In this document: in pieces, positions 3,906-30,014 of the stretch
Numbering within the stretch: position 1 is the stretch's first letter
Layout of the letters: every line of letters starts with the position of its first letter
From: Flavobacteriales bacterium
GTDB taxonomy: Bacteria; Bacteroidota; Bacteroidia; Flavobacteriales_D; CAJJDF01
DNA length: 43,661 nucleotides
NCBI GenBank assembly: GCA_049609665.1
Contig: JBMYYT010000001.1
Coordinates: 1-43,661, forward strand
Direction of reading: 5' to 3'
Notes under the pieces: generated by a model
What the model was told of the DNA's origin: nothing
Databases searched by the model: none
What the model saw: only the letters and a program-made list of their open reading frames with translations
Made by a program: the position numbers and the translations under genes

Positions 3906-3941
3906 GCGATAAAGATAGTTCTTTTAGCTTTTAATTTTCAA

Positions 3942-5846
3942 TTAATTTTTCACTAATTTCAATGTTGACTTTTTGTTCTCCCCGACTAAATTTAAGAAAT
4001 AAACACCCGAACTTCCTTCAAAACTAATTTCATATTGAGTCACATTTTTTGGAGTTATTTCTTTTACTAATCTTCCGTTTATGTCTGTGATAAAAATTGA
4101 AGTTAGCTTAATTGCCTCTTCAAATTTCAAAGTGAAAGTTCCATGAGTTGGATTTGGATAAACCTCAGTATTAATTATAGTTTTTTCAGAAATGGAAATA
4201 TAATTCGATGCGTTTCTTTCGCAAGCTCCAATATCCCTCCTTACATCATTTATATCACCATTTTGAGCTTCATCAAAATCGGTTGGTTCTCCTCTGTTCA
4301 ACAATGGACTTCCTGATTTAGGCATTAAGGTTTTTGTTGGATCTCCATTATATCTTATAGTATCTAACAAAATTACGGAGGAGTCTGCTCCAATTAAATC
4401 AGTAGACAAATAACCAGAGGTCAGATTATCAGAAAAAGCATTGTAGCCAAAGGAGGTAATTCCGGAAGTTGGGAAAAGGAAGTAGCTTGTGGGTTTATTA
4501 TCAGAGAAAATACTGTTTTTCATTGTAATAATGGAAGTCCCACCAAATGAATTCATTAGTATGCCTCCATATCCTCCTCCAGTTCGCTTAGTTTCATTCT
4601 GATAAATAGTTGATTTATTAATATGTAATTTACAAGAACCAGAACTACTCGTTGCGGTAATAGCAGCACCTCCACCTGTTGTGGTTATGTTTCTATAAAG
4701 AGTTGAGGTTTCGATGTTTATTAGGGATAATGTATGAGCACGAGAAAAAATCCCTCCTCCATTTACATCTGTAATGTTATTACAAAGTGTAGAATTAAAA
4801 ACTCTTATCTCAGAGGTATCTGCTCTACTATAACAAAATAAGCCTGCCCCTGTATTATGAGAAATGTTGTCTTCAATTTGATTATTGATACATTCTAAAT
4901 CAGCTTTTTGCTCAGAATCTATACTTACAGCTCCTCCGTTAATTTGAGCAAAGTTTCTTAAATATTTTGTCGTGTATGAGTAAAAACGAATTGGAGAGGA
5001 AGATCCTGTACTTTGAATTGAAATCGCTCCACCACTGCCATAAAGTGCACTGTTTTCAATTAGTTCTGAATTGTAAACTTCAAATTTTGTGTATCCTCCA
5101 AATGATATGTTATACAACCAGATTGCTCCACCTCCTGTTCCATGAGATAAATTTCTATACCAAGTTGACTCCTCAATGTTTATTTCCACGTTATTTGATG
5201 AATGAACATATAAAGCGGCACCTAACGATTTTGAAAAGTTTGAATCTGCATAATTATTTACATAATTAATAGATAGAAAACCGCCATTATAAATATAAAT
5301 TCCTCCCCCTAATGCTTCAGATTTATTGTGAGAAAAAGTTGAGTTTGTAAAATCAATGATTGAGTTGAACTTGTTGGTTGAGATATAGATTCCTCCACCG
5401 TTTCCGGTAGCAGAACAATTTTTAACCATTGAATTAGTTATTTGCACCGTATCTATGCCAAAAAATTTTAGACCACCTCCGTGGTTGATCGATTTGCTAT
5501 CAATAATTGAGATTGAATCAAGCACAACTTTGGAGACTCCGGAAAAATAGAAAGGTGTAATTTGATTGGAACCAGAAATAAATAAAGTATCTGTACTATT
5601 ATAGGACCCTTTGAACACCAGTTTTTTGGAAACGTTAATTGTGCTGGATAAAAAAATAGTGTCATTACCAACATTTAATAGGGAAGAATTGAACCTTATG
5701 GTATCTCCTATGAGTGCAATACTTACGGCATCTCTCAAAGACCCAAATCCCGAATCTTGAGTATTAGTAACAGTAATTGTGTTTGAATAATTAACAATAT
5801 ATAGGAGTAAGAAGACAAGAGAAATTAATGTGTTTTTTATTTTCAT
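3942..5846 (-). CDS. secreted Pmp-like parallel beta-helix repeat protein with T9SS C-terminal sorting domain (paralogue 1, short form)
   Basis: 634 aa. Signal peptide, then cap 'NTITVTNTQDSGFGSLRDAVSIALIGDTIRF...YNSTDTLFISG'. Repeated rungs such as 'NSTFSHNKSEALGGGIYI'. Then 'GYNAFSDN...YNGDPTKTLMPKSGSPLLNRGEPTDFDEAQNG...RRDIGACE'. C-terminal 'VYPNPTHGTFTLKF...GVYFLNL...KLVKN' (about 3945-4163) looks like a type-A T9SS CTD. Confidence 0.85.
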   Translation of the reverse strand: MKIKNTLISLVFLLLYIVNYSNTITVTNTQDSGFGSLRDAVSIALIGDTIRFNSSLLNVGNDTIFLSSTINVSKKLVFKGSYNSTDTLFISGSNQITPFYFSGVSKVVLDSISIIDSKSINHGGGLKFFGIDTVQITNSMVKNCSATGNGGGIYISTNKFNSIIDFTNSTFSHNKSEALGGGIYIYNGGFLSINYVNNYADSNFSKSLGAALYVHSSNNVEINIEESTWYRNLSHGTGGGAIWLYNISFGGYTKFEVYNSELIENSALYGSGGAISIQSTGSSSPIRFYSYTTKYLRNFAQINGGAVSIDSEQKADLECINNQIEDNISHNTGAGLFCYSRADTSEIRVFNSTLCNNITDVNGGGIFSRAHTLSLINIETSTLYRNITTTGGGAAITATSSSGSCKLHINKSTIYQNETKRTGGGYGGILMNSFGGTSIITMKNSIFSDNKPTSYFLFPTSGITSFGYNAFSDNLTSGYLSTDLIGADSSVILLDTIRYNGDPTKTLMPKSGSPLLNRGEPTDFDEAQNGDINDVRRDIGACERNASNYISISEKTIINTEVYPNPTHGTFTLKFEEAIKLTSIFITDINGRLVKEITPKNVTQYEISFEGSSGVYFLNLVGENKKSTLKLVKN

Positions 5847-5863
5847 CTAATTAATAAATAGGG

Positions 5864-7768
5864 TTATAACTTCATTAGTTTTATCGTTTTTATTTCATGG
5901 ACTCCAATTATATTCAAAAAATATAGTCCTGGAATAGCATCAAAATTAATCAAATACTTAGAGTTGTTAGTTGGGGTTATTTCCTTAACTACCCTTCCGT
6001 TTATATCTGAGATAAACAACTGTTTAATAAGGAGTCCGTCTTCAGTTAACAATGTAAATGTTCCGTTGAAAGGATTAGGAAATACTTTAGAAAGAGAATT
6101 AGATTTTTCAGAAATAGAGATATATCCAGAAGCATTTCTTTCACAAGCCCCCATATCTCTTCTCGAATCAAAAATATTTCCGTTTTGAGCTTCATCAAAA
6201 TTGGAAGGATCACCTCTATTAATCAATGGACTTCCGCTTTTTGGCATATGTGTTTTGGTAGAATCTCCATTAAATTTCAAGGTGTCCAACATTATCATAG
6301 TTGAATCTGCTCCGATTAAATCGGTTGTTAAATAACCTGATAAAAGATTGTCGGAAAACACATTGTATCCTAATGAAGTTATAGCTCCTTGGTTGTAGCG
6401 GTAATAACTTATAGGTTTGTTGTCAGCAAAAATTGTGTTTTGCATTTTAATCTGTCCCAAATTAGAGATTCCAGAAAAGCAATCTATTCCGCCTGCGGAA
6501 TTAATTCCAGCTTTATTTTGATAAATGGTGGATTTCATAATGTTTATATCGCACCTTCCTGGACTGCTATGTGCAAATATTGCTCCGCCTTTTCCTGCCG
6601 AACTGTTATTTGAAATAGTAGAGGTTTCTATGCTTAAACCAGTATAGTTTTCAGAAGTAATGAAGATAGCCCCTCCGTTGTTATTTGAGGTGTTGGAGCA
6701 CATAGTGGAATTAAAAATTCTTAATTCAGCTGTGTCGTTGATGCTATAACAAGAAATAACTCCGCCTTGGTAGTTGTTAGCACTATTGTTTTCAAAGTGG
6801 GAGTTTATACATTCAGCATCTATATTCTTGTCTGCTGTGATATGAATACTCCCCCCTCCAGCATTGGCACTATTGTTTGTAAATTTATTGGCATAGGAAT
6901 AAAAACTTAATGATTCATTAGTGCCTTGGGAGCCTAATCCTATTGCTCCGCCATTTCCAAAAGTTGTAATGTTGTTCAAAAAAATAGAGTTATAAACTTT
7001 AATATGTGATAGCCCATTCCAGTTGTTACTTGAAAAACAGAAAGCACCGCCAGAACCTTGGTCAGAAACATTGTTAGAAAACTTGGTTTCCTCAAGAGTA
7101 GCAATCAAGTTTTCTCTTGAGAGAAGAAAAACAGCTCCTCCATTCTTTCTGGAGGAATTGGAATCAAATAGGCAATTAATTATTGATAGTTTTAATAAGC
7201 TTAAGTGGCTATTTATTACCATTGCCCCTCCATCCCAATTACTTCTATTGAAAGAGAACTTGCAATTCTTAAAACGAATAACTGAGTGTACCCCTATGTT
7301 GTTAAAAATAATTCCGCCACCGCTGGTTGTAGACTTACAGTTCTTTACAATTGAATTGCTAATTGTAATGGTATCAACGTTGGTTAAGATTATTCCTCCA
7401 CCTGCTCCTGCTGCAAATCCGTCAACTATCACAATTGAATCCATAATTAACTTATCAAATCCATTAAATTCTAACGGAGAAATTAAATTGGATCCAGAAA
7501 TAAATAAAGTATCCGATGAATTGTAGAGCCCTTTCAAAACCGTGTTTTTTGAAAAGGTAATAGTAGAGGTTAGAAAAATGGTGTTGTTTCCACTTGCGAT
7601 CAATGCCGGGTCAAATCTTATCGTATCTCCAATTAAAGAAAAAGAAACAGCATCCCGTAAGGATCCAAAACCAGAGTCCAAGGTATTTGTAACTGTTATG
7701 GTATTAGAATAAGCGTTCATGTGGGTCAAAAACAAGAATGTAGCAATTATTGATTTTAGAATTTTCAT
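5864..7768 (-). CDS. secreted Pmp-like beta-helix/T9SS-CTD protein (paralogue 2, short form)
   Basis: 634 aa, collinear with paralogue 1 at the same length and roughly half identical by eye. Cap 'NTITVTNTLDSGFGSLRDAVSFSLIGDTIRF'. CTD 'VFPNPFNGTFTL...GLYFLNI'. Its ATG overlaps the upstream stop (ATGA). Confidence 0.85.
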   Translation of the reverse strand: MKILKSIIATFLFLTHMNAYSNTITVTNTLDSGFGSLRDAVSFSLIGDTIRFDPALIASGNNTIFLTSTITFSKNTVLKGLYNSSDTLFISGSNLISPLEFNGFDKLIMDSIVIVDGFAAGAGGGIILTNVDTITISNSIVKNCKSTTSGGGIIFNNIGVHSVIRFKNCKFSFNRSNWDGGAMVINSHLSLLKLSIINCLFDSNSSRKNGGAVFLLSRENLIATLEETKFSNNVSDQGSGGAFCFSSNNWNGLSHIKVYNSIFLNNITTFGNGGAIGLGSQGTNESLSFYSYANKFTNNSANAGGGSIHITADKNIDAECINSHFENNSANNYQGGVISCYSINDTAELRIFNSTMCSNTSNNNGGAIFITSENYTGLSIETSTISNNSSAGKGGAIFAHSSPGRCDINIMKSTIYQNKAGINSAGGIDCFSGISNLGQIKMQNTIFADNKPISYYRYNQGAITSLGYNVFSDNLLSGYLTTDLIGADSTMIMLDTLKFNGDSTKTHMPKSGSPLINRGDPSNFDEAQNGNIFDSRRDMGACERNASGYISISEKSNSLSKVFPNPFNGTFTLLTEDGLLIKQLFISDINGRVVKEITPTNNSKYLINFDAIPGLYFLNIIGVHEIKTIKLMKL

Positions 7769-9816
7769 TGGATTACAATTTTTTTTGTCACTAATGAATT
7801 ATCAATTTTGGCTCTAAGGATAAACACCCCTTTTAATTCTCCAAAATCTAATTTAGTATTAGAAATTATCGAAATAGGGATTTTTTTACCGTCAATTCCG
7901 TGCAAAGATAATACCTCTATACTTTCACTTTTATTTGTACTAAATGTTACATATCTATCGCTTGGATTTGGAAACAACGTTAAACTTGGGTTTTCAAATA
8001 AATCATCTATTCCAACTCCGTTAACATTAATACAGGCGGTTGTATCTACACAACCATTTTTGGTAATTTTCAGGGCATATGTGCCATTAGAATCAGGCAT
8101 TAACCGCCTACCGGTTTGACCTGGAATTGGCGAATATCCGTTTCCACAATCTAACCATTGAAAAGAGGATAAGGAAGAAGTGTCATTTGATTGAATTAGA
8201 AATGAATTAGTAAAAAGGCTCAAATCCATTGGAGTTTTATACAATCTAAAATATAATAGGCTATCATTTCCAGCAGAATTTGTTAAGGTATCAATGTATC
8301 TTCCTGAGGAAGATGCAACTGCTCCATTAGGTAGTGTATAACTTCCACAAATAACATAGTTTTGAAAATCCATAGGAGATTCCGTAGCACCAATTTCTCT
8401 GGTCCCATTTATTAATCCATTTTGTGCATTACTCTTATCTAAAGTATCGCCATTTTCGATAGCGTAGCTTGGATATACAGGCATTAAAGAGACTGTTCTG
8501 TTGCCATTAAGCTGCAATGGTCCAAGCTTGAGTGCCAACGAATCCATTTGACAGCTATCCGTTTTTGTTAGGGTTATTCCTCCAAACGAATTTGTAAGGT
8601 TATATCTTGTTCCTTCAAAAACATTATGCCCTAAGGACCAGTAGCTTCCACTAGTATGAGGGAAGTAGAGACTATTGTTTAAATATATTGAGCCCTTAAT
8701 AGACATAGATCTGGAGTGAATATTAGTTTTATTGTAAGCAATTGTAGAATTATTAATTCTTGTAACCGCGGACCTACTTGATGAGAAGATGTATGCTTCA
8801 GAATTATTACTTTTATTCCTAGCTAAGGTTGAACGATTTAGTTCGAGCAAAGCAGCATCTGTATATATTGCACTTCCCTTGTAATTACAATAATTATTAG
8901 ATACAGAAGAGCTGTTCACAAAAACTCGATTAGCTCCTGAACCTAAAAATCTTGCTCCAAAACCACCACCTGCATTTGCCAAATTATTATTTATATTACA
9001 GTTTTCAACAACAACAGAGTCTAATCCAGAAGAAGAGTAATAAACGAAAAATGCCCCTCCGTATGCACCTGTCATATTATTATTTAAATCTGAATCAATG
9101 ATTTTAACAGCAGATTTTATGGCCCTGTAGTAACAATATAAGGCTCCACCACCTCCATTTCCAGAAGATCCTGTTGGAATTGGGTTACCACTGGAATTTC
9201 GATTTAATTTTGAATTAATCACAAAACATTTAGCTGTTTTTGGGTAATTTGTGCTACTCAAGGAAATTGCTCCACCGTTATATCCTGACAAATTATTAGA
9301 AATATCGCAATTGATAATGTTAACATGAAAAATGGTATCGGATGAATACCCCTGAATTGCACCCCCACGATTTGCAGTATTATATTTTAATACTGAATTT
9401 TTTATTGTCAGCCTCTCCCCATCAAAATTGATTGCTCCGCCAAAACCCGAAACTTTACCTCTGATAAGCACCATACTATCCAAAATTAAGTTTTTGCCAA
9501 GAGACGAGGTGTCTAAAATTGCATTAAAAATTCTAACTGAATCATTCCCGCTTAGAAAAAGTGTGTCAGATGAATTATAAAGTCCAATAAAAGTAAGTGA
9601 CTTAGAAAAACTTATTGTTGAATTAAGAATAATTGTGTCACTACCAAAAGATATTAATGAACTTGAGAATCGAATAGTATCAGCATTATTGGAAGAAGCG
9701 ACTGCATTTCTCAAAGATCCAATCCCAGAATCATTTGTGTTGGTCACTAATTTTAGACCAGAGAAGGCGCTAAAAGAAAAAAATAGAAAAGTAAGAAATA
9801 GAAATGTTTTATTCAT
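7765..9816 (-). CDS. secreted Pmp-like beta-helix/T9SS-CTD protein (paralogue 3, medium form)
   Basis: The ORF track starts at 9855. I prefer ATG 9816 (MNKTFLFLTFLFFSFSAFS), which gives a proper signal peptide and 683 aa. Cap 'LVTNTNDSGIGSLRNAVASSNNADTIRF', GGAI/FxxN-type rungs, one Cys-repeat-like unit, a 4-Cys 'FQWLDCGNGY...NGCVDTTAC' module, and CTD 'LFPNPSDRYVTF'. Confidence 0.82.
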   Translation of the reverse strand: MNKTFLFLTFLFFSFSAFSGLKLVTNTNDSGIGSLRNAVASSNNADTIRFSSSLISFGSDTIILNSTISFSKSLTFIGLYNSSDTLFLSGNDSVRIFNAILDTSSLGKNLILDSMVLIRGKVSGFGGAINFDGERLTIKNSVLKYNTANRGGAIQGYSSDTIFHVNIINCDISNNLSGYNGGAISLSSTNYPKTAKCFVINSKLNRNSSGNPIPTGSSGNGGGGALYCYYRAIKSAVKIIDSDLNNNMTGAYGGAFFVYYSSSGLDSVVVENCNINNNLANAGGGFGARFLGSGANRVFVNSSSVSNNYCNYKGSAIYTDAALLELNRSTLARNKSNNSEAYIFSSSRSAVTRINNSTIAYNKTNIHSRSMSIKGSIYLNNSLYFPHTSGSYWSLGHNVFEGTRYNLTNSFGGITLTKTDSCQMDSLALKLGPLQLNGNRTVSLMPVYPSYAIENGDTLDKSNAQNGLINGTREIGATESPMDFQNYVICGSYTLPNGAVASSSGRYIDTLTNSAGNDSLLYFRLYKTPMDLSLFTNSFLIQSNDTSSLSSFQWLDCGNGYSPIPGQTGRRLMPDSNGTYALKITKNGCVDTTACINVNGVGIDDLFENPSLTLFPNPSDRYVTFSTNKSESIEVLSLHGIDGKKIPISIISNTKLDFGELKGVFILRAKIDNSLVTKKIVIQ

Positions 9817-9833
9817 GGTAAAAAATAATTTTA

Positions 9834-9843
9834 GTAAATTTAC
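9834..9843 (-). promoter_or_regulatory. 10-bp perfect palindrome GTAAATTTAC containing a -7-like box (TAAATTTA) upstream of paralogue 3
   Basis: Read directly from the sequence. It lies 18 nt upstream of ATG 9816, within the 99-bp divergent region. The box differs from TAnnTTTG at the last base. Confidence 0.25.
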
Positions 9844-9915
9844 AAAAAAACACATATAAACCTATTGTTTTCAGGCATTTATCGGGTTTTGTTATTGATT
9901 ATTTAAAATAATTTT

Positions 9916-12528
9916 ATGAAAAAATATTTTTCACTACTTGCCATACTTATTTCTTTTAACACTTTTGCGACTAATCATATCGTTAACAACCTTAATGATA
10001 ATGGACCTGGTTCTTTAAGAAATCAAATAACTATGTCAATGGATGGAGATACTGTTTCATTCGCATCCCATATTGCTAACGGTAAAAATGACACTATTTA
10101 TTTGGACTCGGCTCTTAAAGTAAATTCGTCAATAATTATTATTGGGACACTAAACTCAACAGACACTTTGGTATTGAGCGGACAAAGTTTGCATCAAATT
10201 ATGTATGCTAATCTGAATGGAAACTCAAGACAATCACTTGAAATACAAAATATTGCTTTTATTGACGGAAGCAATCTTAGCAGTGAAGCCGGGGCACTTT
10301 TTTTCAGAGGAGATTCATTGACTTGCAACAATTTATTTTTCAAATTCAATTCTGCGGGAGGTGCAGGAGCGGTATCTATTTTTTCGGAATATGGTACTTC
10401 AGGATATTTTGACTACATGAGTTTCAAAAACTGTAAATTTTATAATAACACAGCCATAGGAGGTAGCTCAGGTGCTTTGAATTTGTATTCTTCCGAAACA
10501 ATGAATGTTTTTATTGAAGATTGTGAGTTTAAATTCAACTCCAGCCCTTCGGAGGGTGGGGCGATTAGAGCTTTAGGCGATAGACTTAAGGTTGAATTAA
10601 ACAGATCGAAAGTCGATTTTAATACAGCATCTGGTGATGGGGGAGGAATTTATTTAAAATCTACTTTTGGCGATGTTCAATTTTTTCTTAATAATTCAAC
10701 TATAGATTACAACTCCAGCCAAAAAAACGGAGGAGGAATTTATTGTTTAAATAAGTCTTATGGAACTAAATTGTCTTTAAACAACTCATCCGTTTCGTTT
10801 AATTTATGCAGCCAAAAAGGAGGAGGAATATATAACCAAATTCAATCAACAAGCACTCCATATTATTCGCAGATTAACAGTCAAAACTCAAAAATAAATG
10901 GCAACTCAGCAAATTCATCGGGAGGTGGTATATATTTTAATTCCAGTGACTCAACAGCTTTATTTATGAAAAACAGTGAGGTTAATGGCAATTCTGCTAT
11001 TGATGGGGGTGGAGTTAATTTTTATGGGAAACTATATGTTGATGTAGATAAATCTGAATTTAGAAAAAACACAGCCTCTTCGGATGGAGGTGGGCTTTTT
11101 TTTGAGGGAAATACTTTTTACGGGAGTCATGATCTGTTTTTTAAAGAAACAGTTTTTTCTCAGAACGTTTGTCAATCTGATGGTGGTGCAATTAGCTATA
11201 TAGGATTTGGATATCCAGAATTAACTGTAGAGTTTTGTGAATTAGATAGCAATGTTGCTAATTCTGGTAGGGGTGGAGCAATATATTACGGCAATCAATC
11301 TCGAATGCCTTATTTAAAGACGAACAACACTACTTATTCAAGGAATATAGCGACTTATGGTGGTGCTATTTATATGTACTCTAAATATAGCACTACACTC
11401 GTGAACCATATGGATATTGAAAATATTACTGTGGTTGATAACGAAGCACTGAATTTTGGTGGCGGAATATGTCTGGTTATATTCAACTCTTCCCAACCTG
11501 TTCAATCCAATTTGGTAATCAAAAATTCAACTTTTTATAACAATATTAAAGGAGGAATATACACACGTGTAAACAATGGAGCTGTTGCATCTGAAGTGGA
11601 GATTAAAGGATCACTTGTGTTTAGCAATGACACTATGAATTTATTTACCGATAGTATTATTTCTGGTGGGTACAATGCTTTTGAAGATAATGTGGTTAAT
11701 GGTTCTAAAACAACTGATTTGTTGGGACTAACAAACTCTCAATTAAATTTAAACTCATTGCAGTTTAATGGTGGTTTTGGAAAAACGGTTATGCCAAAAA
11801 CTTCAAGTGTTCTGTATAATTCGGGAAACCCATCGGATATATCAAAAGCGCAAAATTGGAATATAAAAGGAATAAGAGAAATAGGAGCTTGTGAGCATCT
11901 TAATCTTGCAATAATATACGATACAATTTTCGCCTGTCGAAACTACCCTTCTCCTTCGGGAAACTATTTATGGAATAATTCGGGTGATTATCAGGATCAG
12001 ATAATTTCTAACCCTGGGGACACAGTTTTTTTCATTAATCTTACGGTAGGATTAAAAGCTACACAAACATTGGTTTACCCATTTCTAAGATCAAATGACA
12101 CAGGAGCAACTTATAGATGGTTAGATTGTAGCAATGGTTACTCCGTAATTTCGGGAGCAACTAGCCAGTGGTTTAAACTAACTGCAAATGGGAGCTATGC
12201 CGTTGAAGTTTCCAAGAATGGATGCACGGATACTACTTCCTGCATATCAATAAATAATGTTTCTGTTAAAGAAAGTTTCAAGTCTAAAAATGAATTGAAA
12301 ATCTACCCGAATCCCACTTCAACGAATTTGACAATCGAGATTCCTGAAGGAGTTGATGAATCGGCTATCCTAATAGTAAGAGATGTAAATGGCAGAAAAG
12401 TCTTTCAAAAATCACACATAACTGACGATCAATTGTTTTTAGATTTTAGTCCATTTAAATCAGGAATGTATATCATCGAATTGACAAAAGGAAAAACAAT
12501 TTATAGATCAATTGCAATTAAAAATTAA
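9916..12528 (+). CDS. secreted Pmp-like beta-helix/T9SS-CTD protein (paralogue 4, only member on + strand)
   Basis: 870 aa. Signal peptide, cap 'HIVNNLNDNGPGSLRNQITMSMDGDTVSF...LNSTDTLVLSG', many 'N(S/N)SxxxFNxxxxxGGGIY' rungs, 'GYNAFEDN...FNGGFGKTVMPK...AQNW...REIGACE', 4-Cys module 'YRWLDCSNGY...NGCTDTTSC', and CTD 'IYPNPTSTNLTIE...GMYIIEL'. Confidence 0.85.
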   Translation: MKKYFSLLAILISFNTFATNHIVNNLNDNGPGSLRNQITMSMDGDTVSFASHIANGKNDTIYLDSALKVNSSIIIIGTLNSTDTLVLSGQSLHQIMYANLNGNSRQSLEIQNIAFIDGSNLSSEAGALFFRGDSLTCNNLFFKFNSAGGAGAVSIFSEYGTSGYFDYMSFKNCKFYNNTAIGGSSGALNLYSSETMNVFIEDCEFKFNSSPSEGGAIRALGDRLKVELNRSKVDFNTASGDGGGIYLKSTFGDVQFFLNNSTIDYNSSQKNGGGIYCLNKSYGTKLSLNNSSVSFNLCSQKGGGIYNQIQSTSTPYYSQINSQNSKINGNSANSSGGGIYFNSSDSTALFMKNSEVNGNSAIDGGGVNFYGKLYVDVDKSEFRKNTASSDGGGLFFEGNTFYGSHDLFFKETVFSQNVCQSDGGAISYIGFGYPELTVEFCELDSNVANSGRGGAIYYGNQSRMPYLKTNNTTYSRNIATYGGAIYMYSKYSTTLVNHMDIENITVVDNEALNFGGGICLVIFNSSQPVQSNLVIKNSTFYNNIKGGIYTRVNNGAVASEVEIKGSLVFSNDTMNLFTDSIISGGYNAFEDNVVNGSKTTDLLGLTNSQLNLNSLQFNGGFGKTVMPKTSSVLYNSGNPSDISKAQNWNIKGIREIGACEHLNLAIIYDTIFACRNYPSPSGNYLWNNSGDYQDQIISNPGDTVFFINLTVGLKATQTLVYPFLRSNDTGATYRWLDCSNGYSVISGATSQWFKLTANGSYAVEVSKNGCTDTTSCISINNVSVKESFKSKNELKIYPNPTSTNLTIEIPEGVDESAILIVRDVNGRKVFQKSHITDDQLFLDFSPFKSGMYIIELTKGKTIYRSIAIKN

Positions 12529-13611: not shown

Positions 13612-15704
13612 ATTCGTATAATTTTTAGAGTTTTTGTAAGGTTTTTTGATTGTATTAATAGATAATAATTTCCTGATGGAAAATCCAAAAGGTCAATATT
13701 TAGCTCCGATTTATCAATTTTTTCTTTTTTCAATAGAATTTCCCCCAGATTATTAATTAGCACATAAGAATCTATTAATTCATTTGAAATTGATTTCAAA
13801 TTCACAATGTTAGCAGTCGGATTAGGGAAAACTAAAAAGGCATTATCCTCAATATTTTCTGTTAAATTCAAATTATTAATTTTTATACATTGAGAGGTAT
13901 CAGTACAGCCATTTTTTGTAACAGCCAACGCGTAACTCCCATTTGATGGGATTGAAAAGTAAAATCCTGTATCACTTATATAAGGAGCAAAATTATTATA
14001 ACAATCAAGCCATTGCAAAGAAGATAAGGTGTCATCAGCTTTTAAGTAGGGATGTACTATCGTTATTCCAGTATTAATTTTTTCAACAACTAACTCATAA
14101 ACGCTATCACATCCAGATGGGTTTAGAATAACCTCTCTGTGAATCCCTGTGTTGTTGATTAATTTTCCCCTCCAAGAAATTGGCAAACTACATTGCATAT
14201 AAAACAGACTATCTTTTAATTGACAATTATATTCTGCTGCACCAATATCCCTGTTTCCTATTAACTTTCGGTTTTGAGCATCAGAGGTATCTGCGGTGTC
14301 GCCATTATTTATAGCAATACTACCAGGCTTAGGAGATCTGGTTTTGGAAAAACCTCCATTGTCTTGAAAGTCACTTAAATTCAAACTAACATCCGAGACG
14401 GACAAATAATCCGAGGAAATAGCATGAAATAAAGAATCATCGATAATATTAAAACCCTTAGAAGTTAAAAAAGCAGTATCAGAAAAATTAGGTCCATTAT
14501 TATTGGAATAAATCGAATTGGCTGAAGACACTTTATAGTTTGGGCTATAAAACTCAACTGCTGTTTCGCCAAGGGCAGATTCATTATTATAAACTGTTGT
14601 ATTGGTTAATGATAAAGTGGAAAGATCATTGTTGTATTGAGAATAATTAACCGTAGCGTTAATTGCGCTTCCTTTGCCATGAGTTCTGTTTTTCTCGAAA
14701 GTACAACGGTTAATATCTACTACAAAATTAGATTGTTGACTGTAGTAAGGGCAAATGTGAAGGGCTCCCCCAACTGTTCCCGATGAGTTGTTATAAAACG
14801 TACAGGCATCAATATTGGCTTCAACATAGAAATAGGAACGTAAGTACATTACTCCTCCTGATGAATCCGAATGGTTGTTTTCAAAGGAACAAGTATTAAT
14901 AGAATATAAGCTCCCAAATGAGGCAGAACTATTATAGGTAACTCCTCCATATTTAGAAGTGTTGTTGGAAAACCTGCTAGAATTTATCGTTACATTTCTA
15001 CCTACCAAAACACCTCCAGACCAAACGGCCGAGTTTTTGTTAAATGTTGAGTTATTAATTTCAATCACTGGAGAACCTGTAAACCCCATATAAATAACAC
15101 CTCCAGACCAAACGGCCGAGTTTTTTGAAAATAAACAGCCGTCAATTTTCACAAGATATCTGGCATCAATAACACCTCCTCTCGAATTGGCATGATTGTT
15201 TTCAAAAGTTGAATTTGTGAGGACTGCATATTGGGTATAAATAACCCCTCCCTGAGTGGCAACATTGTTTTTGAATATTGAATTCGAAACAAATAATGTA
15301 TCACTATAGGAATTCATTTTTATTGCTCCACCTAAGGCACCGCCATTGCCATTAATCAAGCACACACTGTCAAATACAATATTGTAAGGAGAAGTTGAGC
15401 TTATTGTATTAATAACAAAATGCTGACTGTTTGGACCAGCGCTAATAAAAAGAGTGTCTGTTGCATTATAAAGCCCTTTGATAACAATTTTTTTGTTAAA
15501 AACAATAGAGGTATCAAGAAATAAAAATTGATTTCCCGAATTAATAAAATTAGGGTTGAATCGAATCGTATCCCCTTCACTTGCAAGCCCAATATTATGT
15601 CTTAGAGTTCCAAATCCGTTATCAAAAAGGCTATTGACAACAAACGTTGCTGCAAAAGAATTGACGGTATATAAAACTATAAGAATTGAAATTATTCTTT
15701 TCAT
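13608..15704 (-). CDS. secreted Pmp-like beta-helix/T9SS-CTD protein (paralogue 5, medium form)
   Basis: 698 aa. Cap 'FVVNSLFDNGFGTLRHNIGLASEGDTIRF...YNATDTLFISA', rungs 'NSTFENNHANSRGGVI', 'GFNIIDDS...DNGGFSKTRSPKPGSIAINNGD..DAQNR...RDIGAAE', one Cys repeat '...GCDSVYELVVEKI', 4-Cys module 'LQWLDCYNNF...NGCTDTSQC', and CTD 'VFPNPTANIVNL'. Confidence 0.85.
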   Translation of the reverse strand: MKRIISILIVLYTVNSFAATFVVNSLFDNGFGTLRHNIGLASEGDTIRFNPNFINSGNQFLFLDTSIVFNKKIVIKGLYNATDTLFISAGPNSQHFVINTISSTSPYNIVFDSVCLINGNGGALGGAIKMNSYSDTLFVSNSIFKNNVATQGGVIYTQYAVLTNSTFENNHANSRGGVIDARYLVKIDGCLFSKNSAVWSGGVIYMGFTGSPVIEINNSTFNKNSAVWSGGVLVGRNVTINSSRFSNNTSKYGGVTYNSSASFGSLYSINTCSFENNHSDSSGGVMYLRSYFYVEANIDACTFYNNSSGTVGGALHICPYYSQQSNFVVDINRCTFEKNRTHGKGSAINATVNYSQYNNDLSTLSLTNTTVYNNESALGETAVEFYSPNYKVSSANSIYSNNNGPNFSDTAFLTSKGFNIIDDSLFHAISSDYLSVSDVSLNLSDFQDNGGFSKTRSPKPGSIAINNGDTADTSDAQNRKLIGNRDIGAAEYNCQLKDSLFYMQCSLPISWRGKLINNTGIHREVILNPSGCDSVYELVVEKINTGITIVHPYLKADDTLSSLQWLDCYNNFAPYISDTGFYFSIPSNGSYALAVTKNGCTDTSQCIKINNLNLTENIEDNAFLVFPNPTANIVNLKSISNELIDSYVLINNLGEILLKKEKIDKSELNIDLLDFPSGNYYLLIQSKNLTKTLKIIRI
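15009..15125 (-). repeat. intragenic 30-nt perfect direct repeat spaced 87 nt (one beta-helix rung) in paralogue 5
   Basis: AACACCTCCAGACCAAACGGCCGAGTTTTT occurs at 15009-15038 and at 15096-15125. Both copies encode KNSAVWSGGV, 29 codons apart. Confidence 0.9.
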
Positions 15705-18700
15705 TTAAGTATAAGTTTAATTGTTTTTGATTCTTTTTCAGTTTTCACTTTTAAATTATAAATTCCTGAAGCTAATGTTTTTGAAAAATTCATCCTGAAA
15801 TTGTCTTTGACTATATTGTCTTCTTCGTAAATCAACTTACCTGATAAATCTGTTAATTGTATATTTTTAACTCCTTTTATTTGTGAAAAATCAATATTTA
15901 CTATTCCGCTTGAAGGGTTAGGATAAACCGTAATATTGCCGTTTTTTGAATTCTCATTCGTTCCAACAAACATTATGCTAAAACAAGAAGAAGTATCTGT
16001 GCATCCATTTTTCGCAACCACAACTGCATATGATCCGTTATTAACGGCAGTAAACACCTTGGATGTTTCTCCTGTTAAAACTGTGTATCCGTTGTTGCAA
16101 TCTACCCATTGATAGGTTACCCCAGTTAGCAATGACTCCAGAGTATTAGAACTTGTTTTGCTTACAAAATTATTAGTCAAAGGAACTATCGTTAAATTAA
16201 TTGCAGTAATACTATCGCACCCTGAAGAATTTAGCAAAGTGTCTTTATAGACACCTGATGAGCTATAGGTTTTTCCATTGCTGGCAAAGTAATATTTATT
16301 ACAAGCCGTAACATTCGTTAACGTAGAGCTGGGTAGATTAATAGTTAAATTAATGGTTATAACACTGTCACAGCCAATGCTGTTGACTAATGTGTCTTGA
16401 TAAATCCCATTTGTAGAGTACAATCGTCCGCTTGAACTGACATAACTATTGCAAGTTGAAATATTGACGGAATTGTAAGTACTTCTTAGTATCGTTAATT
16501 GTAAAGTGTCTGCAGTATTGCAAAAGCTGCCTGCTGATAAAGTTTGAAAGTACGTCCCGGAAGAAGTGTAATTTTTCCCATACCAAGTGTAGTTCTCACA
16601 AGCTACAACATTGCCAGATCCTGCAGTATCGATAATTAAATGTAATCTGTAAATTGAATCACAACCAATAGTTTTAAAGCTAAAATCAGAATAATCACCA
16701 GATATTGAATAAACCTTGTTTCTCCAAGCTATATTAGAGCAAGTTATAATTGTATCTGATTTAAAAAGCTGACAATTTCCTTCGGCTGCTCCGATATCGC
16801 GTGTAGCTTTTAAGGGTCTATTTTGCCCATCGGATAAATCAGTTATATCGCCATTATCAACAGCATAACTTCCAATGAGCGGCATTCTGGTTTTTGTGAA
16901 TCCACCGTTATTTGTCAAAACCCCTAATAAAATAACAGAGGAGTCCGCATGTAATGAATCGGATAAAACTCGATTTAAAAAAGTATCATCACCAATTAAA
17001 TTATAACCATAAGATACAGTACTGTTAGATAGATTTTCAATATTATTAGAGTCTTTGTTAAGGGAAATAATGCTACTATAAACTTCTAATGAGTCGGATT
17101 TACAAAAAACACCATTTCCTTTTACAATAGCTTTGTTGTGAGAAATGGTTGAGTTTAAAACCTTTAGTTTTTCATATTTGTCAGCCATGTGAATTCCACC
17201 CCCTTGAACACTAGCTTCGTTTTCAGTAATAGTTGAGCGATTAACTGTCAGTTTTTTTATTGTAGAGTAAACATAACCACTTGTTGAATCTGAAGAAATC
17301 GCACCTCCTTCTTGAGCTTTATTGTTGTTAAGGGTGGAAGAAAAAATTTCTAACTCCTTTAATTTATAAACATAAATCGCTCCCCCTTTTTTAATTGCCT
17401 CATTATTTTGGAATATGGAATGGTTTATTTTTCCATTACTTGGCATTTGGCAAGCCCCTCCTTTATTAGAGGCATAATTATTAGTGAAATAAGAGGAATC
17501 AATTTTAACTAAGTCGTAATATTGATTTGAAGCAAAAGCTCCTCCATTCGTCCCTTTGTTTTTGTTGAAAATGGAATTTTTTATTGTAGCCATATCCACA
17601 GCAAATACTGCCCCACCATTGAATAAACTCTCATTATCTTCGAAAGTTGAGTTGTTACTTACAAAGTCGCCAGTATTTATTGCACCTCCATTATTTATGG
17701 CATGATTTTTATAAAAAAAGGAGTTCTCCGCAAGTGTTTGAGAAACTCGTGTATCATTATTAAATATAGCCCCACCATTTTGATTGGCTTTGTTAAATTT
17801 CAACACAGTGTTTTTTATGCCCACTTTAGAATATCCAGGTGCTGCCCAGGCATCGGATAAAGAATAAATTACTCCTCCGCTACCTATAGCTTCATTGTTC
17901 ATAATCATACAAGAATCTATCAACACGGATGCAACATTTAAATTACCCGTATACGAGTCAGAAAAAGAATAAAAAGCACCGCCATGGCGGTTACTCCTAT
18001 TGTTTTTGATTGTGCATTTGTTTGCAATTATTTCAGAATAAGTGTTGGGAGTTCCACTAACAGCAGACTTGCCTAATCCGTATGCATAAGAATAAACGGC
18101 TCCTCCATCCTTGCCAGCTATATTATTGCTAATGATTGAGTTATCAAATGTAATTCGGGTATTACTATATATATTTCTAGTGTTCACATAAGAAGTTCCA
18201 ACAGACCTTCTTGAATATAAAAATATTCCTCCACCTTCTAATATAGAGGAATTATTAATCAATTCTGAGTTTGAGAATTGAATTCTAGAATAACTGGAAC
18301 TTGAAATGCTGCTACTCAAATAAGAGTAACAGTATATGGCCCCTCCTTGGTTAGCGGAATTACCATAAAATTTAGAATCCTCAATCTTCATAAGATGAGT
18401 TACTTGGTCTGTTTTAATAGCTCCTCCTTTACTAGTGGCTATATTGTTTTCAAATTTTGACCCACTGATTTCCATATACTTTCCTTTAGAGTAAATCGCA
18501 CCCGCGTCACGGGGACTACTATTATTTCTAAACAAACTGTTTTTTATTGAAATAGTATCTCCGTCAAAGTAGATTGCTCCTCCGTTATTAAGTATATATA
18601 TATTTGTATTCCCAGCACTATTTCCATCAATTATCGATAAGCTATCTATCCACAAGTCTTTTTTGGATAAACCATGAAGGTCAGCACTAAGAACAGGAAA

Positions 18701-21700
18701 ACTTGAATTCCCGCTGATAAATAAAGTGTCTGAAGAATTATATAAACCTACTATTGTTACTTCTTTATTAATCTTAATTGTACTCAACAGGTTAATCGTA
18801 TCGGAACCTCCAATTATTAATGAGTCGGCAAACCTTATAGTATCTCCTGGTTTTGCATTATCAACTACGAATCTCAACGAGCCGTAGCCATTATCTTTCT
18901 TGTTAATAACGTATAGAGTAGTAGGATAATGTCCAATGCAAACTGGATTACTGACACACCCATTTTTACTTAAATACACGGTATATTTTCCATTGTAAAG
19001 TGCTTGATAGTTTCGACTTGATCCATTAAACTCAGGCCATAACAAGACACAATTTCGCCACTGATAAGTGGTTGTGGCATCGTTGCTAGTCATAATATAT
19101 CCGTTTATTGAAACGGTTGTATCAATCGTGGTCACAGTTAAAGTTAATGTATCCATGGTACCGCAACCTCCAGCTCCCGATATTGATTGATAATAAACAC
19201 CAGTTGTAGCATAGGTTTTACCATACCATACAAAAGGCTCACAGCTCGATATTGCTCGAGTACCAATAGTATCAACAAGCAAATTAATTGTAATTACACT
19301 ATCGCAGCCTGTTGAATTTGGGATAACATCCGTATAGGTCCCGGAGGAATAATAAATCAAACCAGAAGGCGAAACATAATTTCCACAACTTGTATCATAA
19401 AGTGTAGTATAGGTTAAAACGTTCAAGGTTAAGTTTAATGTATCAAATCCTGAGCAACACGGAGTTGTGGAAAGAGGTTGATAATAAGTGCCTGATGCTA
19501 AATAAGTTTTCCCAAACCAAGTAAAGCTATTGGCACAAATTGTTTTTGTTAAAGTTCCGTTAGTATCTATAATTAAAACCAAGGTAAATATGGTATCACA
19601 ACCCATAGGGTTAATTTCTGTTAACATAAAAGTGCCTGAAGTATCGTGGAGAGTTCCTTTCCAGAAATAACTTGCTGAAGTGATGATTGTATCTAATTTC
19701 GATTGTTGACAATTATTCTCTGTTGCTCCCACATCTCTAACTCCGATAACCGGCCTGTTTTGGGCATCGGAAATGTCTGTAGGGTTTCCCCCATCAATTG
19801 CAATGGAAGGCGGAATAGGCATTCTTGTTTTTGTAAAACCACCATTAAATAAGGAATATGGGGCTAAATTTACCTGTGAAGGACTTACATTAACCGAATC
19901 TGAGAGGACAAGCCCTACAATACCAGTGTCTGAAAATAGATTATTACCACCAGAATTTATTTTAATAAGGCCACTATTATAAATAAAACTTGTGTCTAAT
20001 GAAAGCAGAATACTGCTTTTAAAATCAACTTTAGAATCAAAGTAATTAGAAATGGAGGCGTCAGCTGAGGAACAATAAATAGTTCCACCATTTCTTACGG
20101 CATTATTGTCTACAAAAGTTGAGTTTAACACATTGACCTGAGAAATAGAGCTATCAATCATATAGTAATTCTCGCTAGTTGAAAGTATTCCACCACCATC
20201 ATTCGTGGAAGTATTGCTTGTAATTGTTGAGTATGAAATATCAACAATGGATTTTGCCGTAGATAAAGAATTTCCCGTGTATAATGAAGCTCTGCTATAA
20301 ACACCTCCACCATAGGCTCCTGAATTGCTATCAAGAGTTGAATGCAAAATTTTCACATTTGATTCCGCGTATTTTACTGTAGATGAACAAACACCTGACG
20401 AATAAATTCCACCAGCAACGTAGCTGGCAATATTTTTACTTAGGGTAGAGTTACTAATTGTAACAAAGGAAGAAGAAGAATTAGAAAAAGAATATATTCC
20501 AGCTCCTGATTGCGCATTATTCCCTATAATTTTTGAATTATTAATGTCGATTTTGGAATGAGACCGAGCAGATGATGTTGATTTATTGTCTGCATGTATC
20601 CCACCACCACGATTGGTACATGTATTAAAGCTAATCTCAGAATTATTAACTAATATTTTGGTATAACTTCCTGATGATGAATTTGTTGAAGCGTGTATCC
20701 CAGCGCCATATTTTGAAACATTATTATTAATTTTACTATTGTAGATTTTAATTTTATTTGTATCTCTATCTGACCAGCAACTAATACCACCACCCCACAC
20801 TCCACCTGAATTATTGGTTATACTCGAGTTTTGAATTGTAAGATCTGAAGAAGAGTGACTGGAATTTGAATAAATTGCACCGCCTCCGCCACTTGACGTT
20901 GAAGAATTCGAATTATTAGTAAAACTACTGTTATCAATAAAAACAATTGATTTTGTAGATGATGAATTAGAAGAAGCACTACTACTAACAGCTCCACCGG
21001 TCCTTCGTGACGAATTATTATTAAATGTAGAATTTCTTATTTCAACTTTAGAAAAATCTCCATTATTATTTGATCCACAGCTTGAAATTAATCCACCTCC
21101 ACTTCCTCCTGTACTATTATTGCTAATATCCGAGTTTGATATTTTAATTACAGAGTTTGCTCTACTTGTGAAACAAACCATTCCACCTCCACTACCAGAG
21201 GCATTATTATTAACAACTTTGGAATTCAAGATTGTTAAATTGACATAAGAATAGGTGGATTGAAGATAAATGGCTCCTCCTTGATAGGAAGAGTTTCCTC
21301 TTAAGACACTGTTATTAATTGTAATTTCAGATGAATAGAATAAAGAAACAGATTTGATTGCACCCCCAGATCCTGAAATACCAGCAGCTCCATTTATCAA
21401 AACAACAGAATCAAAATAATTGTTAATACCACCAGTAGCTCCATCCAAATCAAATATGCTTACTAAGCTATCACCCGATATGAAAAGAGTATCAGTAGAA
21501 TTATAAATTCCTTTATAAATCAATGACTTTGTAGATGGTAATGCGGAGATTAATAAAATTGTATCACTCCCACCTGCAATCAAACTTGGCGAAAACCTAA
21601 TCGTGTCCCCTGAACTTGCTGAAGCCATTACTGCTCTCAAAGAACCCGCACCCGAATCGTTGGTGTTGGTAACTGTGTCCGTTGTAGAAAATGCAAAACT

Positions 21701-21742
21701 AAGGGAACAAGAAAAAATTAAAAGTAAAATAAATTTATTCAT
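15701..21742 (-). CDS. giant two-module Pmp-like beta-helix/T9SS-CTD protein (paralogue 6)
   Basis: 2013 aa. Signal peptide plus cap 'DTVTNTNDSGAGSLRAVMASASSGDTIRF'. A second complete cap 'LYVINKKDNGYGSLRFVVDNAKPGDTIRF...YNSSDTLFISG' starts near aa 941 (about nt 18922). Each half has rungs, a 'NGGFTKTRMP...DAQNRP...RD(V/I)GA(T/A)E' segment, four Cys-bracketed repeats of about 42 aa, and a 4-Cys module. There is a single CTD, 'VYPNPSSGIVNIDF...GIYNLKV', at the end. Confidence 0.88.
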   Translation of the reverse strand: MNKFILLLIFSCSLSFAFSTTDTVTNTNDSGAGSLRAVMASASSGDTIRFSPSLIAGGSDTILLISALPSTKSLIYKGIYNSTDTLFISGDSLVSIFDLDGATGGINNYFDSVVLINGAAGISGSGGAIKSVSLFYSSEITINNSVLRGNSSYQGGAIYLQSTYSYVNLTILNSKVVNNNASGSGGGMVCFTSRANSVIKISNSDISNNSTGGSGGGLISSCGSNNNGDFSKVEIRNSTFNNNSSRRTGGAVSSSASSNSSSTKSIVFIDNSSFTNNSNSSTSSGGGGAIYSNSSHSSSDLTIQNSSITNNSGGVWGGGISCWSDRDTNKIKIYNSKINNNVSKYGAGIHASTNSSSGSYTKILVNNSEISFNTCTNRGGGIHADNKSTSSARSHSKIDINNSKIIGNNAQSGAGIYSFSNSSSSFVTISNSTLSKNIASYVAGGIYSSGVCSSTVKYAESNVKILHSTLDSNSGAYGGGVYSRASLYTGNSLSTAKSIVDISYSTITSNTSTNDGGGILSTSENYYMIDSSISQVNVLNSTFVDNNAVRNGGTIYCSSADASISNYFDSKVDFKSSILLSLDTSFIYNSGLIKINSGGNNLFSDTGIVGLVLSDSVNVSPSQVNLAPYSLFNGGFTKTRMPIPPSIAIDGGNPTDISDAQNRPVIGVRDVGATENNCQQSKLDTIITSASYFWKGTLHDTSGTFMLTEINPMGCDTIFTLVLIIDTNGTLTKTICANSFTWFGKTYLASGTYYQPLSTTPCCSGFDTLNLTLNVLTYTTLYDTSCGNYVSPSGLIYYSSGTYTDVIPNSTGCDSVITINLLVDTIGTRAISSCEPFVWYGKTYATTGVYYQSISGAGGCGTMDTLTLTVTTIDTTVSINGYIMTSNDATTTYQWRNCVLLWPEFNGSSRNYQALYNGKYTVYLSKNGCVSNPVCIGHYPTTLYVINKKDNGYGSLRFVVDNAKPGDTIRFADSLIIGGSDTINLLSTIKINKEVTIVGLYNSSDTLFISGNSSFPVLSADLHGLSKKDLWIDSLSIIDGNSAGNTNIYILNNGGAIYFDGDTISIKNSLFRNNSSPRDAGAIYSKGKYMEISGSKFENNIATSKGGAIKTDQVTHLMKIEDSKFYGNSANQGGAIYCYSYLSSSISSSSYSRIQFSNSELINNSSILEGGGIFLYSRRSVGTSYVNTRNIYSNTRITFDNSIISNNIAGKDGGAVYSYAYGLGKSAVSGTPNTYSEIIANKCTIKNNRSNRHGGAFYSFSDSYTGNLNVASVLIDSCMIMNNEAIGSGGVIYSLSDAWAAPGYSKVGIKNTVLKFNKANQNGGAIFNNDTRVSQTLAENSFFYKNHAINNGGAINTGDFVSNNSTFEDNESLFNGGAVFAVDMATIKNSIFNKNKGTNGGAFASNQYYDLVKIDSSYFTNNYASNKGGACQMPSNGKINHSIFQNNEAIKKGGAIYVYKLKELEIFSSTLNNNKAQEGGAISSDSTSGYVYSTIKKLTVNRSTITENEASVQGGGIHMADKYEKLKVLNSTISHNKAIVKGNGVFCKSDSLEVYSSIISLNKDSNNIENLSNSTVSYGYNLIGDDTFLNRVLSDSLHADSSVILLGVLTNNGGFTKTRMPLIGSYAVDNGDITDLSDGQNRPLKATRDIGAAEGNCQLFKSDTIITCSNIAWRNKVYSISGDYSDFSFKTIGCDSIYRLHLIIDTAGSGNVVACENYTWYGKNYTSSGTYFQTLSAGSFCNTADTLQLTILRSTYNSVNISTCNSYVSSSGRLYSTNGIYQDTLVNSIGCDSVITINLTINLPSSTLTNVTACNKYYFASNGKTYSSSGVYKDTLLNSSGCDSITAINLTIVPLTNNFVSKTSSNTLESLLTGVTYQWVDCNNGYTVLTGETSKVFTAVNNGSYAVVVAKNGCTDTSSCFSIMFVGTNENSKNGNITVYPNPSSGIVNIDFSQIKGVKNIQLTDLSGKLIYEEDNIVKDNFRMNFSKTLASGIYNLKVKTEKESKTIKLILK

Positions 21743-21760
21743 AAAAGGGATGTAATTCGT

Positions 21761-21777
21761 TATCTTTCATAAAGATA
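21761..21777 (-). promoter_or_regulatory. palindrome TATCTTT-CAT-AAAGATA overlapping a -7-like box upstream of the 2013-aa gene
   Basis: 7-bp arms with a 3-nt spacer, 19-35 nt upstream of ATG 21742. The minus strand reads TATCTTTA, which is TAnnTTTG-like except for the last base. Confidence 0.25.
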
Positions 21778-21909
21778 GAAAATATTTAGTGTTAACTTAA
21801 ACCACGAGTCAAGTTATCTTGAAAATAAGTCATTTAAACTTGAATTTTTTACGCAAACACAGAATAATTAAACCAAGAATTGTAATTTTACAAGAACAGA
21901 TATAACGAA

Positions 21910-25652: not shown

Positions 25653-25700
25653 CTGTATTCCTTTTGTTTTGTAGTTGAGTTTTTGAAGTAACGCATAGGG

Positions 25701-28880: not shown

Positions 28881-28900
28881 AATGCGAAAGGAATAAGGGG

Positions 28901-30007: not shown

Positions 30008-30014
30008 AATTTGT

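Follow-up and report, generated by a model that had tools for sequence, protein, structure and literature searches.

Gene array and shared architecture

The window analyzed here is a 43,661-nt stretch of the Flavobacteriales contig JBMYYT010000001.1, and the array under study occupies positions 3942 to 21742 within it. An open reading frame (ORF) scan of this segment found seven back-to-back intact ORFs, labeled A to G, whose products carry a type IX secretion system (T9SS) sorting domain. Six of them code for proteins with a beta-helix like that of the chlamydial polymorphic membrane proteins (Pmps), and since the largest gene, G, is a fusion of modules G1 and G2, there are seven modules in six beta-helix genes. 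An initial annotation had already described a Pmp-like array of this composition, and its coordinates and gene lengths were recovered by the ORF scan, while the Pmp family model (Chlam_PMP, PF02415) and an AlphaFold2 model of F agreed with the assignment. The elements of the block, in order of coordinates, are as follows.

3906-3941: spacer of 36 bp separating the A stop from the prfB ATG (3905-3903); it forms the block's right edge, and homology to relatives is lost at 3906
3942-5846, - strand: gene A, 634 aa; signal peptide, N-terminal cap (N-cap), Pmp-type rungs, choice-of-anchor Q segment, T9SS type A sorting domain (DNA 3945-4163, - strand); lacks the Cys and immunoglobulin (Ig)-like insert
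5864-7768, - strand: gene B, 634 aa; architecture as in A, its closest paralogue; sorting domain at DNA 5870-6085, - strand
7765-9816, - strand: gene C, 683 aa from Met14 of a 696-aa ORF reaching 9855; small Cys domain, "YQWLDC" Ig-like domain, sorting domain; the most degenerate of all, with 19.5 bits for Pmp and 13.3 bits for choice-of-anchor Q
9817-9915: divergent spacer of 99 bp between C and D
9916-12528, + strand: gene D, 870 aa; complete architecture, small Cys and Ig-like domains included; sole + strand member; sorting domain at 12301-12507, + strand
12529-13611, - strand: gene E, 360 aa; signal peptide, two beta-sandwich domains, type A sorting domain; no beta-helix
13608-15704, - strand: gene F, 698 aa, reference member; signal peptide (residues 1-18), cap (19-115), ~14 rungs (116-420), choice-of-anchor Q (442-493; DNA 14226-14381), small Cys domain (~500-545), Ig-like domain (~547-610), sorting domain (625-696; DNA 13617-13832)
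15701-21742, - strand: gene G, 2013 aa, fusion of two modules
15701-18937, - strand: module G2, residues 936-2013; cap without signal peptide, rungs, choice-of-anchor Q, GCDS repeats, Ig-like domain, sorting domain (DNA 15704-15928, - strand)
18938-21742, - strand: module G1, residues 1-935; signal peptide, cap, rungs, choice-of-anchor Q, GCDS-type Cys repeats, Ig-like domain; no sorting domain
21743-21909: divergent spacer of 167 bp between G and cysS; left edge of the block, homology to relatives restarts at 21908

The six beta-helix genes follow one design, namely a putative signal peptide, an N-cap, a series of Pmp-type rungs, a C-terminal cap (C-cap) formed by the choice-of-anchor Q segment, optional small Cys and Ig-like domains, and the sorting domain. 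The small domains lie between the rod and the sorting domain in four of the six genes. We are highly confident in this architecture and in the assignment of the proteins as T9SS cargo. Inspected by eye, all seven N termini begin with M-[KN]-K/R followed by 12 to 15 hydrophobic residues and small residues, and the model of F places a helix at residues 2 to 13 with a low predicted local distance difference test (pLDDT) score. In the case of gene C, the start at Met14 (coordinate 9816) is supported both by the normal signal peptide that it gives and by the orthologue in a sister species (see below), which aligns from residue 15.

The N-cap could be aligned in every one of the seven modules, 20 columns being invariant, and is followed by rungs with the consensus [IV]xN[SC]xFxxNxAxxxGG[AG][ILV]. 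The tetrapeptide GGA[ILV] appears 3 to 13 times per protein versus 0.03 to 0.15 times in shuffled sequences (20 to 100 times commoner), while FxxN was only moderately enriched. Chlam_PMP passed its cutoff (20.6 bits) in five of the seven modules (G2, 111 over 14 stretches; F, 67; D, 45; B, 29.5; G1, 23) and missed the other two by 1 bit (A, 19.6; C, 19.5). The choice-of-anchor Q model (NF041518, a 58-aa domain with a cutoff of 25 bits) passed in four modules (G2, 40.0; F, 35.3; B, 33.8; A, 26.6), and in the three that scored below threshold (G1, 23.4; D, 13.9; C, 13.3) the segment could still be aligned at the same position, the C-terminal end of the helix. At the end of the proteins, the NCBIfam model of the type A sorting domain (TIGR04183) exceeded its cutoff of 23 in all seven genes, including E (29 to 44 bits), and the Pfam model (Por_Secre_tail, PF18962) passed in six, gene C scoring 23 versus 27. 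Both the sorting domain and the choice-of-anchor Q-like segment had been proposed in the initial annotation and are upheld by these searches.

Two other families considered there did not fit. The CSLREA model (TIGR04214) gave no match to the F cap at an E value of ≤5, the cap having G-S-L-R and not C-S-L-R-E-A, and Pfam Beta_helix (PF13229) was below threshold in every protein, with only D scoring at all (24.5 versus 25.9). The Rhombotarget A model (TIGR04212, cutoff of 295) matched G alone, with 23.8 bits, and no GlyGly-CTERM was found. Neither a Pmp middle domain nor an autotransporter beta-barrel was present among the Pfam matches, the C terminus being a T9SS sorting domain. At an E value of ≤5, Pfam and NCBIfam had no match for the cap, the GCDS repeats, the small Cys domain, or the N-terminal domain of E.

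The O-glycosylation sequon of Bacteroidota, D-[ST]-[AILVMT], was three to five times more frequent in the six beta-helix proteins than in shuffled sequences (6 to 31 versus 2 to 9 expected). These sequons include three invariant or nearly invariant motifs of the cap, D-T-[IV], D-T-L, and D-S-[IVLM] (in F, for instance, residues 45 to 47, 83 to 85, and 112 to 114), which could be glycosylation sites or purely structural. Within F there is also a perfect 30-bp direct repeat (15009-15038 and 15096-15125), present in a conspecific strain as well (contig L083, see below). Its copies are 87 bp apart, equivalent to 29 aa or one rung (...NKNSAVWSGGV...), and it is a recent duplication of a single rung.

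Gene E had been left outside the six-gene design in the initial annotation, which is correct in that it has no rungs, but it is also type A T9SS cargo and a conserved member of the block. Its N-terminal domain belongs to an unannotated Bacteroidota family (homologues P0210-P0248) in which the residue directly following the signal peptide is an invariant His (His21 in E; A-x-H-I-x-G-G), D-x-D-G-D (DVDGDSL) is likewise invariant, and a CC pair is nearly so. The members of this family end in a type A or type B (PF13585) T9SS sorting domain. The AlphaFold2 model of E (pLDDT of 80) consists of two beta-sandwiches and the sorting domain, and Foldseek returned only generic Ig, FN3, and S-layer matches for it.

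Distances between neighboring genes are 36 bp (prfB-A), 17 bp (A-B), -4 bp (B-C), 99 bp (C-D), 0 bp (D-E), -4 bp (E-F), -4 bp (F-G), and 167 bp (G-cysS), with 4-bp start/stop overlaps in G/F, F/E, and C/B. The convergent genes D (+ strand) and E (- strand) meet at 12528/12529 with 0 bp between their stops, which leaves no room for terminators, and the same zero-bp abutment recurs in the sister species (L084, 9274/9275). Because of the 4-bp overlaps and the 17-bp gap, the gene order suggests transcripts G-F-E and C-B-A, the latter perhaps running on into prfB, with D transcribed alone; this agrees with the co-expression in two strings that had been predicted. The promoters of D and of the C-B-A string are presumably located in the C-D spacer. 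A scan for sigma-70 promoters was uninformative (87 sites versus 82.7 expected), the Bacteroidetes -7 motif TAnnTTTG was found at 49 sites versus 67 expected and at none in the two promoter-bearing spacers, and the terminator-like sites detected by a terminator scan fall within genes.

Predicted fold and similarity to known surface proteins

We modeled F with AlphaFold2 on a 29-sequence family alignment and read the fold from the secondary-structure pattern. The model (pLDDT of 86.5 and predicted template modeling score [pTM] of 0.73, with a pLDDT of >90 over most rungs) shows a signal helix, the cap, ~14 coils of three short strands (~85-415), and an ordered but non-regular C-cap that coincides with the choice-of-anchor Q segment, after which come two small beta domains and the sandwich of the sorting domain. 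The modeled rod is most probably a right-handed parallel beta-helix, its handedness being inferred from structural matches. The best Foldseek match of F in the PDB was Rhombotarget A (RbtA) from Acinetobacter baumannii (9cdu, E value of 3e-6), followed by the glycoside hydrolase (GH) LnbX of family GH136 (5gqc, E value of 2.5e-4) and by many Ig-like receptor domains aligned to the C-terminal part; the RgpB sorting domain was also listed. A profile built from the family alignment matched RbtA over the rungs (E value of 2.7e-10), while a single-sequence phmmer search of the F helix against the PDB gave no match, so that RbtA is reached by profile only. Solved T9SS sorting domains (8glk, 8glj, 5ag8, and 8qb1) were matched by the C-terminal parts in Foldseek or profile searches, and a GH167 enzyme and a lipase matched the profile exclusively through their sorting domain.

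RbtA (9cdu/9cdv) is thus the best match to the helix by both structure and profile and, like the members of the array, has a Pmp-like beta-helix. It is a cell-surface protein that provided the first structure of its class and was crystallized as a design target (PMC12643943). The end of its cloned helix, translated from the published reverse primer (...LGAIEYI), resembles the R-D-I-G-A-x-E with which the choice-of-anchor Q segment ends in the array. However, RbtA is sorted by GlyGly-CTERM/rhombosortase and the type II secretion system, whereas the array proteins have a T9SS sorting domain, and the likeness is restricted to the fold and the rungs. Chlamydial Pmps share with the array the GGA(I/L/V) and FxxN rungs, the beta-helix passenger, and the organization as a surface family of many paralogues, but they are type Va autotransporters of an intracellular pathogen, with a middle domain and a beta-barrel, whereas the array belongs to a free-living Flavobacteriales bacterium and points to export by T9SS. 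Pmp6, Pmp20, and Pmp21 are adhesins that attach to host cells (PMC2997323). According to structure predictions of Pmps, the tetrapeptide motifs have a structural role and the functional features are found in side loops (PMC11166332), and therefore the motifs mark the scaffold and not the ligand.

As for the export signal, type A sorting domains are recognized by the PorV shuttle (PMC12618676). Characterized type A cargo such as RgpB, mirolase, and RemA or ChiA of F. johnsoniae has a C-terminal beta-sandwich sorting domain of ~72 aa after an Ig-like domain, as found here, although their passengers (proteases, chitinase, and lectin) are unrelated to those of the array.

The proteins of the array are further members of a very large T9SS beta-helix cargo class, already annotated but uncharacterized. 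A phmmer search with the F helix retrieved 9286 representatives of 50%-identity clusters at an E value of ≤1e-3 and 2223 at ≤1e-10, many of them giant multimodule proteins and some 2 to 6 thousand residues long. Those that bear a name in the sources appear as "T9SS type A sorting domain-containing," "choice-of-anchor Q domain-containing," "predicted outer membrane repeat protein," or "hypothetical." Annotated Bacteroidota proteins with both choice-of-anchor Q and T9SS type A domains (NF041518 and TIGR04183) have the same architecture from the cap to the sorting domain, and those of Crocinitomicaceae, Vicingaceae, Phaeocystidibacter, and other Flavobacteriales are 28 to 38% identical over the full length. 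The distant F homologues that we inspected (in Crocinitomicaceae, Phaeocystidibacter, and one further lineage) and an E homologue are singletons in unrelated contexts, in contrast to the block of seven modules with an Ig-like partner found here. A literature search gave no paper joining "type IX secretion" and Chlam_PMP.

Conservation of the block and its position between prfB and cysS

Paralogues within the array are highly divergent. Apart from A and B (49.5% identity by blastp), every pair is 27 to 32% identical, and G resolves into its two modules (residues 1 to 935 and 936 to 2013). Synonymous sites are saturated between paralogues (synonymous divergence [dS] of 1.8 to 2.6, with ~2.6 for A/B) and likewise between orthologues of this lineage and the sister species. 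At the opposite end of the scale, a 4210-bp ENA contig from a conspecific strain (L083) was 97.6% identical to positions 12282 to 16491 of the window with zero gaps. Over these 4.2 kb, the ratio of nonsynonymous to synonymous divergence (dN/dS) was 0.17 for the C terminus of G, 0.15 for F, and 0.18 for E, which indicates purifying selection within the species.

The sister species is represented by four contigs (L001 and L084-L086) that are 99.5 to 99.7% identical to one another, and from them its arrangement could be pieced together as G' (2003 aa) -> F' (705) -> E' (359) <- D' (860), and C' (688) -> a gene of the A/B type, with the order and orientation of the window. Identity between orthologues was 56% for G, 59% for F, 60% for E, 54% for D, and 57% for C, and the last gene shared 45% identity with A and 41% with B. 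The species is present in samples such as ERZ928430, and the sister species in samples such as SRR36548965, SRR23272291, DRR671419, and ERZ8868305. The two-module fusion of G is present there too (2003 aa). Since these collinear one-to-one orthologues have saturated dS, the paralogues had already diverged when the two species separated, and the layout has been kept since then. This, together with the saturated paralogue dS and the low dN/dS, bears out the earlier proposal of an old, maintained repertoire. The mature domains of the orthologues (cap, rungs, choice-of-anchor Q, and Ig-like) are 53 to 74% identical with almost no indels, compared to 17 to 49% for the signal peptides and sorting domains. 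The better conservation of the mature part indicates that selection acts on the secreted portion, each paralogue keeping its own number of rungs.

In one sister contig (L001, 4104-9949), the G orthologue is split into 1869 and 80 aa, either by an assembly error or by a strain-level disruption, and it is intact (2003 aa) in the three other contigs. Upstream of G', where the window has cysS, the sister species carries a further beta-helix gene (1009 aa) and a T9SS gene (276 aa). For its right flank, the search with the A-type homologue found only a 1.6-kb contig of a third lineage.

Eight contigs of close relatives, some of them possibly from the same organisms, have the prfB and cysS neighbors but no such array. 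In two of them (L003 and L004), the divergent prfB and cysS are separated by just 89 and 177 bp, homology to the window stopping at position 3906, a single base upstream of the prfB ATG, and restarting 2 bp before the cysS ATG. The same adjacency was found in three metagenome contigs with release factor 2 (RF2) 91 to 94% identical. Given the short spacer of the relatives, the 18-kb block fills a normally short site. The block is much older than its insertion; either it arrived here as a unit or it disappeared repeatedly elsewhere. Shared repeats at the block edges do not exceed 11 bp, no integrase or transposase was found there, and the GC content of the block (0.33 to 0.36) matches that of the flanks. 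The CysS proteins of the nearest genomes, all metagenome assembled, are 79 to 83% identical to that of the window, and those of named genera reach at most ~63%. A lookup of the exact CysS sequence of the window yielded no recorded contig.

In a more distant contig (L103, RF2 identity of 83%), the cysS/prfB spacer holds a lone gene of ~290 aa (3840-4772) with MORN/YwqK-like repeats by eye, and this spacer may be one in which accessory surface genes land recurrently. The prfB gene of the window (RF2, 2828-3905, - strand) has a programmed +1 frameshift with the site at 3845-3839, where 21 codons ending in CTT are followed by an in-frame TGA (3842-3840) and then C; the 287-aa prfB ORF of the scan is only the downstream frame. 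Its start is 36 bp past the stop of gene A, the upstream spacer seen in relatives having been lost, and prfB may be read through from the C-B-A string.

Elsewhere in the window, positions 24348 to 30521 (- strand) contain a resistance-nodulation-division (RND) efflux operon (outer-membrane factor, AcrB-type pump, and HlyD-type adaptor) with a MarR regulator upstream. Its proteins had no match in the ~10 kb downstream of the M28 peptidase gene in L003 and L004, and the operon looks lineage-specific. A 1142-aa ORF without Pfam matches at an E value of ≤1e-3 follows (30562-33990, - strand), and the + strand encodes a pair of large proteins with MORN_2 repeats (560 and 787 aa) as well as a C1 peptidase of the papain family that is fused to DUF4384 (34162-35844, 35910-37502, and 40093-42456).

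Possible function and alternative explanations

The explanation that we favor, with moderate confidence, is that the array codes for non-catalytic, adhesin-like binding proteins delivered by T9SS, each paralogue having its own conserved role. The seven proteins would be exported by Sec and passed to T9SS through the type A sorting domain recognized by PorV; after translocation, the sorting domain would be removed and the protein released or fixed to the surface, in line with established T9SS biology (PMC12618676). Six of them would form rigid right-handed beta-helix rods in which GGA[ILV] and FxxN-like motifs stack the coils, with the N-cap and the choice-of-anchor Q C-cap closing the rod, and in four of the six genes small Cys and Ig-like spacer domains would join it to the sorting domain. 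Through a conserved helix surface and loops of its own, each paralogue would engage a different ligand. The genes would be transcribed as G-F-E, C-B-A, and D alone, from an old block that already existed before the sister species split off and that, in this lineage, is within the divergent prfB/cysS spacer. A binding function, which is suggested by analogy, seems to us an even chance.

Several points weigh against this explanation. The analogy with adhesins relies on a fold in which lyases, hydrolases, and ice-binding proteins are found as well, and the literature searched contains no paper using the term "choice-of-anchor Q" and no family member with a tested function, which is likewise the case for RbtA. 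No gld, spr, or por genes of the T9SS machinery are found in the 43.6-kb window, and the organism, a marine-type bacterium, is uncultured and known only from metagenomes. Moreover, the signal peptides were judged by eye only, and the scans assigned no promoter or terminator.

Since the right-handed beta-helix is the classic scaffold of polysaccharide lyase (PL) families PL1, PL3, PL6, and PL9 and of GH28 and GH136, and many Flavobacteriia secrete such enzymes via T9SS, the rods could instead be secreted carbohydrate-active enzymes of a PL or GH family for which there is no model, the array being a degradative set diversified by substrate. Foldseek did list LnbX (see above) and, weakly, the PL6 enzyme AlyGC (5gkd, E value of 2e-3, probability of 0.44) among the matches of F. 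However, TM-scores to enzymes were only 0.26 to 0.29, indicating a generic helix likeness, and no lyase or hydrolase family of Pfam or NCBIfam was found in any module at an E value of ≤10, in agreement with the initial annotation, which had seen no catalytic family. In the 29-sequence alignment, invariant charged or polar residues are confined to the N-cap and the C-cap, one at each end of the rod, while the invariant residues of the rungs are Asn and Gly. There are no SusC/SusD, sulfatase, or other polysaccharide utilization genes nearby in the window either, and we consider an enzymatic role unlikely. The initial annotation had suggested surface adhesins or variable antigens. The second option, in which the paralogues would be interchangeable antigens or phage-receptor decoys maintained to allow antigenic or phase variation, as has been suggested for the pmp genes of chlamydiae, would suit a multicopy surface family with paralogues 27 to 32% identical, for which the Pmp analogy fits, as well as the recent internal rung duplication in F. 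It is at odds with the purifying selection between strains (dN/dS of 0.15 to 0.18, without indels), with one-to-one orthologues that keep their length and rung count in a species with saturated synonymous sites, and with mature domains that are more conserved than the sorting signals. Devices for phase variation were also missing, as no homopolymers (≥9 A/T or ≥6 G/C) were found except for a C6 run in B, inverted repeats were only weak and AT rich, with none of the invertible-promoter type, and there were no DNA tandem repeats. Gene conversion left no evidence, the closest pair, A/B, having a dS of 2.6. Antigenic variation is therefore quite improbable, and of the earlier suggestion what stands is the T9SS type A cargo identified by TIGR04183, the adhesin part remaining an analogy only.

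The order and orientation of the seven genes are kept at an orthologue identity of only 54 to 60%, gene starts are translationally coupled, and E always adjoins F in this lineage and its sister, the distant homologues of both being singletons. These features would be expected if the seven proteins were subunits of one heteromeric surface structure (fibre, coat, or tether) with E as an adaptor, but synteny can last without co-assembly, and every one of the seven carries a putative signal peptide and a sorting domain of its own, as independent cargo does, making a common structure rather doubtful. An extension of this idea, a relocatable cassette of six rods and an Ig-like adaptor that are exported separately by T9SS, co-assemble into a heteromeric fibre or coat, and were moved as a unit into the prfB/cysS spacer, is a speculative scenario to which we give little weight. 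If true, it would be a new kind of T9SS-built appendage, and the interest of the array would rise only if the seven proteins form one structure. At the other extreme, the genes might be decaying relics of an amplification without current function, as A and C are just under the Pmp threshold and C, D, and G1 under that of choice-of-anchor Q. This is extremely improbable, all seven ORFs being intact and under purifying selection between strains and species, and G being split in only one of the four sister contigs; a dN/dS well below 1 and the intact orthologues effectively refute it.

Binding proteins delivered by T9SS remain our preferred interpretation of the array. The finding extends a class known to annotation pipelines and reveals no new mechanism; what is new is a conserved seven-gene unit with an Ig-like partner, its purifying, paralogue-specific conservation, and its location between prfB and cysS in this lineage. 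Cargo proteins that combine a Pmp-like beta-helix with choice-of-anchor Q are among the largest unexplained protein classes of Bacteroidota, with thousands of 50%-identity clusters, and a compact block in which the identity of each paralogue is kept across species offers a handy entry to the questions of which ligands the rods bind and whether they work jointly.

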